Shown one piece after another: positions 1,135 to 64,000 of a stretch of 64,000 nt of DNA. The stretch spans positions 16,492,001 to 16,556,000 of the forward strand of contig CM022676.1 in assembly GCA_012295275.1 (NCBI GenBank), read 5' to 3'. Below the pieces are notes generated by a model, which ran no database searches, was not told the origin of the DNA, and saw nothing but the letters and a program-made list of their open reading frames with translations. The first letter of the stretch is position 1; every line of letters begins with the position of its first letter. The translations under genes and the position numbers were made by a program. The DNA is from Chrysomallon squamiferum. Taxonomy: Eukaryota > Animalia > Mollusca.

Positions 1135-1248
1135 ATGAGGTATGTAATGAAAATGTGACAGCAGTGGCTGTTGGATCTGGATCAGGGACACTCGTCTTAA
1201 CTCTTCTTGTTATTGGAATTATTTTCATATGTCGTAGACTGAAAAAAG
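1135..1248 (+). CDS. Receptor gene A, transmembrane exon (DEVCNENVTAVAVGSGSGTLVLTLLVIGIIFICRRLKK)
   Basis: ttttcag acceptor and gttcat donor, 114 nt, phase 1-1. Hydrophobic helix followed by a basic stop-transfer. Same length as and homologous to 41206-41319. Confidence 0.9.
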
Positions 1249-1796
1249 GTTCATACTTTTGATTCTTTGCTGTGTTATTTGTACTGTGCGAACGTGCATT
1301 TGAGTGCATCTTCTTCTGTGTGTATATGTGCTTATGTACATGTATGTGTGTGTGTGAGAGAGAAAGAGAGAGAGAGAGAGTGATGAGCATCAGTAATACA
1401 ATTTGAAAGAAAAAAGAAATACATTTTGTAAGAAGAGAAAGTATAATAATTATATGTAATTTCATAATTATCATATTCATGTTATTTATTATTATTATTA
1501 TTGTAATTATTATTACTGTTATTATTATTATTATTGTTATTATTATTATTATTAATACTTTTAATATTATAAAATAACAGATATTTTTTCGATTATTTTA
1601 TTTAATATAACAAATATTGTGATAATTTTTACCAGATGACGTCATCTGTATTATGCTTTTGTGGAAACCATTTTTCCTTTTAAGAACTTTACTAGCAATA
1701 AATTAGAATTCTAATTTTTGGTTTTATTATTATTATTTTTTTTATTATTTGTTTTTAGTTTACACCTGCAATTTTTATTTAAATGTTGTTTTTCAG

Positions 1797-1830
1797 GAAA
1801 TGGAAAAGACAAACATGAGTATGAAAAAAG
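1797..1830 (+). CDS. Gene A cytoplasmic exon 1 (GNGKDKHEYEKR)
   Basis: tttttcag / gtaatg, 34 nt, phase 1-2; paralog at 41751-41784. Confidence 0.85.
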
Positions 1831-2898
1831 GTAATGTTAACTGACAGTACAGGTGAATACAGTTTAAATTGTTTGGTAGCTGTGTTGATGCATATATGTC
1901 CTCCTTCACAGCAGTGATTACACATTTCAGTCCTTACACGAGTATATTTATTATGCAAATGAAAGGTTAAGAGTCTCCTGATAAAACATCCTATCCTGTT
2001 TCAATGTAGAATGTTTATAACGTCCACAATTCAGAGGTTCAATGATCGGTGAATCATTATAACGAATTATCATTTATAACGAATCTCTAAATGTAAGCAG
2101 TTCCCGATTGATGTCTGAAATATTTCTGTGTGTTAACCTCTGGTTTGTTGACGATCAAGGGTGAGATGACATTTCTCTGGTCAAGGGAACACTAGGCTGT
2201 CGTGGTCAGTTGTGGTAACTGTTTTCAAGGTATCTTAAATGTACTGATTCATTAATACAACTTTATCCAATGTGAGAAAAAGACTGACAGATCCAAAATG
2301 TGTTACACAAATTCCGTGATAACCATATTCTCTATTGGTGATCTACTAATAGGGAATCTTTATGATATGATGTTTGCTACTTTCAAACTCGAAGTTTGAG
2401 CACCGAGTTTCCTTTAAGAGAGAGACCGAAGAAATCCATAACCAGCTAGATCCTAGTTTTCTATTTAGATAACTCGTCTGACTTGTAGTTGAATCCAGTA
2501 TCTATAAACGTCACTGTCAAATTTATCTGTTAAGTTTTCCTATCTTTCTACCAAAGAGTAAGTGTATTCTTTCTGTGTCTGTGTACGATGTCTGTCTGTA
2601 TGATATCCATATATGCTCTCTATTTTTTTGTACTTTATGTTATCATCCAACAATCCACAATTACACTGTTCGGTAATTTCTTTTTAATTAACTCCAAATT
2701 TTATTTCCTATAATATTTTTACTAATATATATATATATATATACATAGATAGATAGATAGATAGATAGATAGATATATAGATAGATAGATAGATAGATAG
2801 ATCATTTGACTGTAAATTGTAAGAAGGCTTTATGTAAATTTTGTTATTAAAATTAAAACATGAATTCACGTAGACATTTTGTCTGTTTCAAATCACAG

Positions 2899-61000: not shown

Positions 61001-61692
61001 TACAATTTTTGGGATGGTCAAATAAACATGTACTATTTCCATAAAAAAGCAATTAATTAATTGTTTAATGGTTAATATATGTTGGTAACAGCTTCGGAAT
61101 GTGCCTGTGTTGGTAAATCACCAATAACATGATTGTTCGATAGTTACAAATTAAAAATGTGTCTGTGTACAATATTCAAGACATTAAAGATATTTATTCG
61201 CTGAAAAAGTATTAGAATTTGTTACTCAATCAGTACAGAAGTTCAGAACAGAATATCTGTATTAAAACACACGGACATACGAACCGTTGTTCACAGAATC
61301 AGATACACACAAACAGAACCACAGAAATACACGCTCCCGTGCAATCACATTTAGACATGTTCATTGAGGTATATACGTATCTCAAATATACATAATGACA
61401 AACGATTTGAAATAAATAAATACAGATAGACAGATAAATCAAGATGAATAGAAAGACAAGTGGACAAACTATACAAATAAAGGTTTTCTTCAGTGTTCTT
61501 GATTACAATAATTTGTTTTACCTCATCTGTGTCATACGTTCCATTCCAACTACTAAGAACAAAGATGCGTACGATTACGAAATAAACTTCGTCAGTCAAC
61601 TTGTCATGTATATAAGGCTAGGAACAAGCATCTGAATTAAAGTAGTTGTGTTTGTTGGAGACAGACTGATGTGGTCAGTTTTTGATTAAGAA

Positions 61693-61740
61693 ATGTCTTT
61701 CTTTCCAAAAGCATGGATTTATTTACTGCAGTCATTTCAC
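61693..61740 (+). pseudogene. Disabled leader exon upstream of gene C (48 nt, 10 nt shorter than intact leaders), counterpart of L4
   Basis: gaaATGTCTTTCTTTCCAAAAGCATGGATTTATTTACTGCAGTCATTTCAC|gtatgt; flanks match 17250-18250. Confidence 0.65.
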
Positions 61741-64000
61741 GTATGTCATATTATTTGTATGTATATAGTTATAAAGAAAGAAATAATCGATAGTTATAAT
61801 GATAATTAAAATTGTGTATCAGTGAGGTATGGAAATATGAGGATCGTGAATTGAAAAATGGATAAGTCTGCACTGACAAAAGATTCACAGCAGAAAGTAT
61901 GTTTGTTAGATGATATTGGTACAACAGGCTTAATAATATTCGCTCTCGAATGTTGAGATTTTGGCGCAATGGGCATAACTGCGACTATTTTTAGATTGAT
62001 ACATTTTGATGAAAATGTTTTATTGGAAGGATAATTTGGTAAGGAGTCCAAATGAGCCACTAGGCGGTAGGAACTACATTTTGGAATATTTTTACCTTTT
62101 GCTCGACCTTGAAATGACTTCAATTGAAAATTAAAGTTCAAAGTGTTACCTACAACGCAAAATGTAATATTTTGAGTTTAATTGTGAAATGCACTTAAAA
62201 TGAACATGCTGACCACACAATGTCTATTTTCACACTTTTAGAGATTAAATAATACAAAAAAGCACCAGGTTGCAATATTTTTAAAAAACTAAGATTATCA
62301 AACTATAGATTTTAATTATTTTTTTTTTTTTTTAATTTTTTTTTTTTGTGTGTGTGGGGTATATATATATATAAACCGGTAAGAAAGAACCAACTAGAGG
62401 ACTAGATGTAATAATCTCAAGAATAACAAAAAATTCAGCACAGAAATAATAAAATATATGTGTATGTATATGTTCTCTTGTTGTATCGTTCTTACTGGTT
62501 TCTGGTAGTACAAATTAAATTACACAGCCACAGAATAAAAGAAAATTTAAAAAATTACAAAATACAATAACATCAAACAATTAAGCAGTATCAGTTTGTT
62601 TATTTACCCGTAACAAGTTGCACGGCTTCTTTAAACTCTTTATCTTAATTTGACCCCTGTAAAGTGACACCTGATAACTTAAGAACCGTGACTTGCAAGT
62701 TATGTGACTTCGATCACGTTCTCAAGAACAAACGAATACAAAACAACTTCAAACAGAAAGTTTTCATTTATAAAGTGTTCAACGACGATAAATGATGTTG
62801 AGTAATGTCTAATAATAACTGAAGATGAATATGAAAATAACACTTAAATATTTTGTATTTAATAATTACTATTGACATCCGTATAGACATTCATATTCAC
62901 ACGTCAAATTTTTTAATGACATTGTCTTCACGAAAGAGCGTGGCAAGCAATAGTCTATTATTATTTTGATAGGCTGTAATGTGCAGTTAACTTGTGTCAA
63001 TAACTTTAATTATAAATAAAATTTTAACTTCTTATTGTGTCTCCGGTGCAGATTCTTATTTTGTCTTGGTTCACCATATAACCTTACTCGTATCATTAAT
63101 CAAAATTACTTAAACATATGCTTTATGATTGTGTACTGTGTACATATCAAGACACCTGCATATCATAATTAAATAATTAACGTGAAAATTAACTTGCGTT
63201 GTGTTTATTTCTCTAGTGGGTAGATATACTTATTGATTTATATAAGTTGCTGACAATTTAGCGTTTGTATTCCTTGTTAAATCATCATGTTATCTTAGAC
63301 TGAACCTTAATAAAACATCCAAGGTGTTTAAAAGTGTGATTCCTGTCTCAACATGCATGCATATATATATATATATATGCATAAACATACAAATATATAT
63401 ATATAGTATTTTGTCCGTTAATTTAAAAAAAAAGGTTTAGCTAATTTGAATTTATTTTGAATTTTAAATATTCAGTGTGACGTGTTGTATGACCGTGTTG
63501 ATATTGTGTGATTAAAACGTTTCAGTGTTTCACTTCCAGGTCTTGCGCTGTTTTTGTATGTGATACAAAATTCGGCTTTATCATTTTTATATATATATTG
63601 TTTTTATTTATCTAAATTTAAGACCTCTTTACGTTTCCAGTCTGAAACTGATCCTAACTGAGTCACTGAAAAGTTTAATTTTCAACTGAACTGTTTGTTT
63701 CCAGCTGCTGCTGATTAAACTGAGATCGCTTGTCAGTGAAGAGATATTTTAGAGTATAAAAAAAAACAAAAAAACATGTCTTAGTTAAAATGCTTTATAT
63801 TCTGTGTTTATTCAAGCAGTGGTAAAGCTAAAATTAAATAATAAACACATTAATAACTTTTAATTAGTGCACATCTAAAGTTGAATTGTGTGGTCCTGTT
63901 AATCATTAGAATTGTCAATTATGCATAATATTTATTCTTAAAAAAAAAAATAAAAATAAAACAAAAAAAAAAGACTTTTATTTCTATCATATAAAAATTA

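Follow-up and report, generated by a model that had tools for sequence, protein, structure and literature searches.

SRCR domains on the membrane stalk of a gastropod Ig receptor: a predicted chimeric gene in a tandem cluster of Chrysomallon squamiferum

How does a gene come to encode a row of SRCR domains in front of an Ig domain, an FN3 domain, a transmembrane (TM) segment, and a tyrosine-bearing tail, and what might such a protein do? The question is raised by a locus of the mollusc Chrysomallon squamiferum, in a stretch of 64,000 nucleotides (assembly GCA_012295275.1, contig CM022676.1, forward-strand positions 16,492,001 to 16,556,000) that we call the window and number from its first base. 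Judged from its sequence, the Ig-FN3-TM-tail part of the gene is a member of an expanded gastropod Ig(n)-FN3-TM family, a point that a preliminary description of this DNA had missed. Most likely, a block of SRCR exons was shuffled into an Ig-receptor gene of this kind.

Microsatellites abound in the window, whose G+C content is about 30%. When its SRCR half-exons were used as queries against it and exon boundaries were read from the sequence, seven 5′ and seven 3′ SRCR halves came to light between positions 23.0 and 36.4 kb of the plus strand, on which all exons and leader copies given below lie. Together with one exon each for the Ig, FN3, and TM segments and three tail exons, these 14 half-exons make 20 exons that join into 3050 nucleotides (nt) with a single terminal stop; a 58-nt leader exon brings the total to exactly 3108 nt, or 1035 amino acids, in 21 exons. 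All 20 donors are GT and all 20 acceptors AG, and on splicing, the 21-exon model of the preliminary description was reproduced exactly. The predicted protein runs from a signal peptide through seven six-cysteine SRCRs, one Ig, one FN3, and a TM segment to the tail. Pfam recognizes SRCR in the three half-exons checked (E values of 3.9e-11, 5.6e-13, and 2.2e-12), Ig_2 in the Ig exon (3.3e-8), and fn3 in the FN3 exon (2.6e-11). Hydropathy of the 1035-residue protein has maxima solely at the N terminus and around residues 965-997, giving one signal and one TM segment, and PDB searches with its domains confirmed the folds and nothing beyond them. A Pfam search of ten other open reading frames in the window returned no meaningful match. 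The choice of leader is ambiguous, there being two intact 58-nt copies, at 12690-12747 (the one in the 3108-nt model) and at 9771-9828 (the alternative). A leader near 22.3 kb was dropped, no hydrophobic exon running from ATG to GT having been found there.

The Ig exon (39416-39694) ties the gene to the gastropod family. Among 103 candidate proteins it matches 25, which without exception belong to the vent snail Gigantopelta aegis, at 69-80% identity (never above 80% outside one short partial match, at 91%), and 14 of the 25 matches fall on a contig of 53.39 Mb. Complete members consist of a signal, several Igs, an FN3, a TM segment, and a tail, and their automatic names are scattered among nephrin-, syg-2-, hemicentin-, and CEACAM5-like. 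None of the 25 carries an SRCR. A full-library search with the Ig exon brought up 335 proteins; among the best 150 of these, the 145 that were new have none either, which makes 170 relatives without an SRCR. Twenty further relatives that were looked up include six from G. aegis and nine from Haliotis, the Haliotis members being the more distant. In trees, the window sequence sits on a long branch with no supported sister. The FN3 exon (39910-40209) is 51-58% identical to its eight best counterparts in the family; a word-based search with this exon matched none of 48 candidates, atlas searches returned generic FN3 and Ig clusters only, and a metagenome scan gave one match at 29% identity (L001).

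An extra cysteine pair of the Ig is present in 20 of the 25 G. aegis relatives, and in the window gene the cysteine that follows the Ig has been re-formed across the new Ig-FN3 junction. In all 17 relatives holding both domains, the interval from Ig to FN3 is about 102 residues; in the window gene, the Ig and FN3 exons are separated by only a 215-nt intron, in which no match to an Ig was found. Among the 17 TM-bearing G. aegis members, three have a strict ITAM (immunoreceptor tyrosine-based activation motif) overlapping an ITIM (immunoreceptor tyrosine-based inhibition motif), and four more have an ITAM-like pair ending in methionine; the ITAM pattern also occurs in 8 of 12 further hand-picked relatives. 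The family in G. aegis and Haliotis (P0121-P0145, P0160, P0181, P0183, P0192, and P0196) combines a common stalk with N-terminal Igs of two kinds or more, and the tail of P0160 holds four repeated ITIM units.

Traces of the same family are also found at the SRCR end of the gene. Among 147 proteins, both intact leaders score best against P0129, a G. aegis Ig receptor (35 and 25); the highest scores among 72 SRCR-protein controls are 15 and 19, which leaves the copy at 12690 a small margin; the scores against P0129 were reached by 5 and 48 of 10,000 shuffles. Since P0129 and its isoform diverge after residue 19, their leader exon would be of the same length. At 37697-37802, outside the coding model, lies a stretch that is probably left over from the 3′ half of an ancestral, now decayed Ig exon and that resembles the end of the family's second Ig, is on the correct strand, and ends at a GTAAG donor. 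None of 200 shuffles reached its score, and it gives 5.2 bits, compared with 4.6 for the best of 26 control stretches. Aligned by eye, the window tails follow those of the P0121/P0129/P0145 subgroup, which bears an ITIM and an ITAM, with the middle tyrosine lacking here. An Ig-family leader, Ig, FN3, and tail, taken together with an Ig remnant and a lost Ig, point to exon shuffling by which an SRCR block entered the gene of an Ig receptor, and we regard a fused, exon-shuffled gene as quite probable.

What, then, was brought in with the SRCR exons? In group A, the SRCR domain is split over two exons. All seven SRCRs of the window gene are built in this way (145 plus 170 or 176 nt), and each has six cysteines, which bears out the group A assignment made at the outset; in alignments with CD163, the N-terminal-side cysteine of group B is absent from them. 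SRCR1 (23047-24286; exons 23047-23191 and 24111-24286), SRCR2 (24595-25112; exons 24595-24739 and 24937-25112), and SRCR3 (25762-26784; exons 25762-25906 and 26609-26784) are duplicated as SRCR4 (30220-31440; exons 30220-30364 and 31265-31440), SRCR5 (31754-32271; exons 31754-31898 and 32096-32271), and SRCR6 (32914-33481; exons 32914-33058 and 33306-33481), with identities of 82, 99, and 98%; SRCR7 (35499-36408; exons 35499-35643 and 36239-36408) follows. Between the two blocks, divergence varies along the duplicate: it is as low as 1% in places, elsewhere reaches 11%, and at the far end is about 18%. Differences in the flanking introns amount to 4-11%, and one intron has a length difference of 455 nt. 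A 1.2-kb insertion (28019-29227), with a 5-bp target-site duplication, is present in one block of the two; its broken frames, which resemble retrotransposon gag, gave no Pfam match. The patchy divergence and the one-sided insertion are better explained by unequal crossing-over together with gene conversion than by misassembly. Partial copies of the SRCR 5′ half-exon lie in the first introns of SRCR1 (23380-23475) and SRCR4 (30540-30622) and are probably pseudo-exons. Between SRCR3 and SRCR6, the nonsynonymous (dN) and synonymous (dS) divergences indicate purifying selection (dN 0.012, dS 0.095, p 0.004).

The SRCRs also differ in the residues with which they might meet a ligand. In the structure of SALSA, six surface residues form two cation sites, D1019, D1020, and E1086 in one and D1020, D1058, D1059, and N1081 in the other (PMC7043408). 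Across 975 anchorable domains of 1384 SRCR domains fetched, these six positions are mostly D, D, D, D, N, and E. None of the seven window SRCRs keeps the D-D-E triad. Site 3 is intact in SRCR2 and SRCR5, and these two, with SRCR7, retain most of the acidic calcium-site residues; in SRCR1 and SRCR4 they have been replaced, at most one of the six being retained, with the buried structural site kept. A profile search found 1156 SRCR proteins; among the best 120, mostly long SRCR arrays, the best single-domain matches are molluscan (46-56% identity), four proteins carry Igs, three of these four being clearly of the SRCR-Ig-TM type, and none lists an FN3.

At the other end of the protein, the TM exon (41206-41319) is followed by tail exons at 41751-41784, 43176-43228, and 43905-43933. 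Motifs of the YxN and YxxL types bind SH2 domains. The tail of this central copy has one YxxL/YxN motif, YDNL, in the second tail exon. Its stop, at 43931, falls inside the distal tyrosine motif, where a paralog upstream runs on through its second motif; the homologous frame continues to about 43969, and about 12 residues are lost. An ITAM-like pattern, with a 12-residue spacer, appears in the central tail only if the stop is read as X. Of the tyrosine-motif tails described previously, the YDNL of the central copy and the YENL and YEVF of the paralog are present, but the distal motif of the central copy is cut by the stop.

That paralog forms part of a cluster. Its TM exon (1135-1248), with AG and GT borders, and three tail exons (1797-3637; 1797-1830, 2899-2951, and 3554 to about 3636) are open and share 48 of 87 aligned residues with the central copy; the two TM exons diverge by 21% in nucleotides and lie 40,071 bases apart. 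Downstream, at 63425-63997, the block that precedes SRCR1 (22176-22674) recurs at about 80% identity and a spacing of 41,249 bases and would start a third unit. Out of 19,347 bases that precede SRCR1, 5,306 recur beyond position 44,000, leader copies included. The recurrence of leader copies and of the pre-SRCR1 block at 54-64 kb indicates a unit of 40-41 kb. Both the 3′ end of a paralog 40 kb upstream and the leader region of a third copy downstream, as noted in the preliminary description, are borne out, and the clustered family it proposed is supported as a tandem cluster under birth-and-death turnover. The units of its tandem array of SRCR-Ig-FN3-TM genes do repeat, but only one ectodomain lies inside the window; the neighbors' ectodomains being outside it, the SRCR content of those two copies is an extrapolation.

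Besides the two intact leaders, four further copies of this exon are found. Three are broken, being split by a TA microsatellite (11365-11420), frameshifted (17650-17705), or shortened with an altered exon end (61693-61745); the fourth (54347-54431), which would belong to the putative third gene, has its ancestral start changed and depends on an in-frame ATG upstream, its donor being intact. All six copies come with upstream flank (at 9.6-12.8, 17.6, 54.3, and 61.6 kb) and are in differing states of decay; they may be alternative promoters or relics of lost genes. Inverted copies of a 330- to 370-base element, about 78-80% identical and likely a dispersed repeat, lie at 38270-38599 and 62909-63279. 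A 26/52-base minisatellite stands behind both tails (4143-4527 and 44272-44369), and a 40-base one behind the central gene (45070-45746).

Part of the evidence runs counter to a fused, diversifying, and signaling recognition receptor. The splice from SRCR7 to the Ig exon (36408 to 39416) is a predicted junction, and the last exon of SRCR7 can also stay open for about 52 codons until a stop. The Ig remnant is statistically weak (E value of 0.25 for the whole window), and in BLAST the TM and tail exons reach just 26-32% identity to the gastropod Ig family. Between the paralogs, these exons differ by 18-30%, compared with 21-24% in intron blocks that had been picked for being alignable; with the TM and tail as diverged as such introns, constraint on the tail is not demonstrated. 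Patterns for ITIM, ITAM, and the immunoreceptor tyrosine-based switch motif gave no match in either window tail, which weakens the likeness to paired receptors drawn earlier. With the stop in the distal motif as well, the claim of a signaling receptor is weaker than was first implied; what stands of it is the single-pass form and the ITAM/ITIM-tailed ancestry. As to diversification, SRCR1 and SRCR4 differ at 5 of the 6 cation-site positions compared with 13 of 100 positions elsewhere (p 0.0005; 0.004 without invariant columns and 0.003-0.013 against neutral rates of 11-15%), but the six positions were fixed only after clusters of substitutions had been noticed, and gene conversion from paralogs outside the window is possible, so that this concentration of changes on the ligand face is a sign, suggestive only, of the diversification proposed at the start. 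The dN/dS ratio of the pair, about 1.6 (dN 0.094, dS 0.06), is not significant (p 0.47), and the adjoining intron is 11% diverged. Finally, in C. squamiferum the main sites of expression of the expanded SRCR genes are the epithelia that secrete shell and scales (PMC7142155), and immunity is therefore not the sole candidate role.

Weighing these points, we lean somewhat toward a predicted surface receptor in which SRCR exons have replaced the N-terminal Igs and which likely recognizes microbes or other foreign surfaces; once the fused gene is granted, a recognition role seems rather likely. We imagine that phase-1 exon shuffling placed the SRCRs behind the leader of the Ig gene, that the Ig exons they displaced either decayed or were deleted, and that unequal crossing-over then multiplied the SRCRs as well as whole genes. 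SRCR2, SRCR5, and SRCR7 would bind polyanionic ligands through their retained acidic calcium-site residues, and SRCR1 and SRCR4, having lost theirs, would be modules of variable specificity. Clustering by ligand would allow a Src-type kinase to phosphorylate YDNL and SH2 adaptors to be recruited; the central copy, without the second motif, would be a weak signaler or else a capture or decoy receptor beside paralogs with full signaling. There is a molluscan precedent in an oyster Ig receptor with an ITAM, which binds bacteria and recruits Syk (PMC6994640). A broader proposal, which we make tentatively and consider rather doubtful, is that the two most expanded surface families of vent snails, SRCR and Ig(n)-FN3-TM, have been fused into a new tandem family, in which the SRCR face, having given up broad calcium-dependent binding, diversifies under selection and paired signaling and truncated paralogs screen microbes or symbionts.

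The main rival to recognition is a matrix or adhesion role, in which the same chimeric membrane protein would be an epithelial receptor organizing the secreted material of shell, periostracum, or scale. Tandem DMBT1-like paralogues, as many as 65 of them, show high expression in C. squamiferum's mantle and in its scale-secreting epithelium, and CEACAM-, syg-2-, and nephrin-like names appear in its scale and mantle gene lists (PMC7142155); a tail that has lost signaling motifs, as in the central copy, would suit such a protein too. Yet the DMBT1 domain table of that paper has no Ig or FN3 (0 matches) and 0-5 SRCRs per copy rather than 7, similarly named genes are also raised in the symbiont-bearing gland, and the ligand-face changes of SRCR1 and SRCR4 are more in keeping with a foreign ligand that shifts than with a matrix that stays fixed. 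On this evidence, a matrix receptor seems fairly unlikely. It is also conceivable, and in our view unlikely, that no working fusion exists, a secreted SRCR-only gene ending after SRCR7 and the Ig-FN3-TM exons being the remains of a neighboring or decaying Ig receptor gene. Such a gene would account for the frame that reads on after SRCR7 to a stop, for the nonsense codon in the last exon, and for the broken leaders and the Ig remnant in an intron, and phase-1 compatibility is common among exons of this sort. However, the leader preceding the SRCRs is of the Ig-family type, none such lies between SRCR7 and the Ig exon, and two other hydrophobic ATG-GT candidates in that interval are unlike it; the Ig, FN3, and TM exons, moreover, are intact with their splice sites despite about 20% divergence of the Ig protein sequence from G. 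aegis.

Two further readings bear on the cluster and the array rather than on the fusion. The second three-SRCR block could be an artefact of assembly, with haplotypes placed in tandem and a true gene of four SRCRs, as the divergence of about 1% across the SRCR2-SRCR3 stretch might suggest; introns that differ by 4-11% (about 18% at the far end), the 455-nt length gap, and the 1.2-kb insertion confined to one block make this very unlikely. Clustered single-pass Ig/FN3 receptors, pseudogene fragments, and relatives with ITAM or ITIM motifs also bring to mind an allorecognition locus in the manner of Hydractinia Alr, in which binding is homophilic and specific to alleles. Solitary snails are not known to have tissue-fusion allorecognition. 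The window gene has no V-set tip, and its Ig and FN3 are canonical and were found by a plain Pfam search, which most Alr domains elude (bioRxiv 10.1101/2022.03.04.482883). With the V-set tip and the atypical Ig/FN3 of Alr absent, the self/non-self reading offered by the preliminary description is left without support, and we consider such a locus extremely unlikely.

A predicted recognition receptor of shuffled origin would be of interest in several respects. The case for domain shuffling in immune receptors usually rests on lists of architectures; at this one locus the traces of shuffling are legible as an Ig-family leader, a decaying Ig exon, a lost Ig, and a kept cysteine pair. The locus also brings into view a large family of gastropod Ig-FN3-TM proteins that bear ITAM/ITIM tails and are dispersed among unrelated automatic names. 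Coming from a symbiotic vent snail, it offers concrete receptors and residues for the question of how such hosts discriminate among microbes. Neither the components nor the overall strategy is new, and the findings extend known biology rather than overturn it.

How does the gene stand beside known systems? By the features checked, it is not a DMBT1, CD163/WC1, Alr, or nephrin ortholog. Nephrin and SYG-2 are conserved low-copy genes with 8-10 Igs; the window gene has one Ig, and its relatives are multi-copy gastropod paralogs, in a comparison made with no tree including true nephrins. Group B SRCR domains have eight cysteines. With six in each SRCR, the gene is set apart from CD163 and WC1, which are of that group (PMC2906472). 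DMBT1/SALSA is defined by SRCR, CUB, and ZP domains in a secreted protein (PMC7736800); leader, SRCR, Ig, FN3, TM, and tail make up the whole of the window protein, which lacks the dual cation site. Compared by description, the DMBT1-like expansion of C. squamiferum shares with the window its tandem SRCR genes and variable domain number (PMC7142155, PMC7736800) and differs in having 0-5 SRCRs and, in the published domain table, no Ig or FN3. The top expansions in this snail are 65 DMBT1-like and 90 CEACAM5-like genes, two of the latter being raised in the symbiont gland (PMC7142155), and G. aegis, too, has an expansion of CEACAM5-like genes (PMC7895826). Through shared names only, these published groups may be equated with the window family.

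Outside molluscs, the general SRCR(n)-Ig-TM design recurs, to judge by their domain content, in proteins of two fish and an octocoral (P0005 of Xyrichtys, P0119 of Larimichthys, and P0087 of Dendronephthya), which are named DMBT1-like or uncharacterised. They combine an SRCR array, Ig, TM segment, and tyrosine-bearing tail as here, have no FN3, and gave no match between their Ig domains and that of the window; the likeness is therefore probably convergent. In the titles and abstract openings found by a literature search of partial coverage, no SRCR-Ig-FN3-TM receptor is described. Hydractinia Alr resembles the locus as a cluster of single-pass Ig/FN3-like genes with pseudogenes and exon shuffling, and differs in its V-set tips, atypical Ig sequences, lack of SRCRs, and demonstrated allorecognition, the window locus being known from sequence (bioRxiv 10.1101/2022.03.04.482883). 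Biomphalaria PTC2, likewise compared by description, is also a snail locus where single-pass proteins are clustered and structure turns over; what defines it is divergence between haplotypes together with resistance to parasites (PMC7494358). The oyster receptor CgIgR is also a single-pass Ig receptor from a mollusc, its tail bears tyrosines, and by its architecture it serves as a working model for the ancestral family; it has five Igs, a classical ITAM, and no SRCR (PMC6994640). The nearest relatives are the gastropod Ig(n)-FN3-TM proteins themselves (XP_041373842.1, which is P0129; XP_041372569.1, which is P0121; and those of Haliotis), with which the window gene shares leader, membrane-proximal Ig, cysteine pair, FN3, layout of TM and tail, and a multitude of paralogs. 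Their ectodomain is all Ig, whereas seven SRCRs form the N terminus here, and the window gene lacks the Ig before FN3 and the ITIM/ITAM tyrosine that they possess. In its working, the window protein is predicted to come closest to a molluscan Ig receptor of the ITAM family that has received a different sensor and lost part of its tail.

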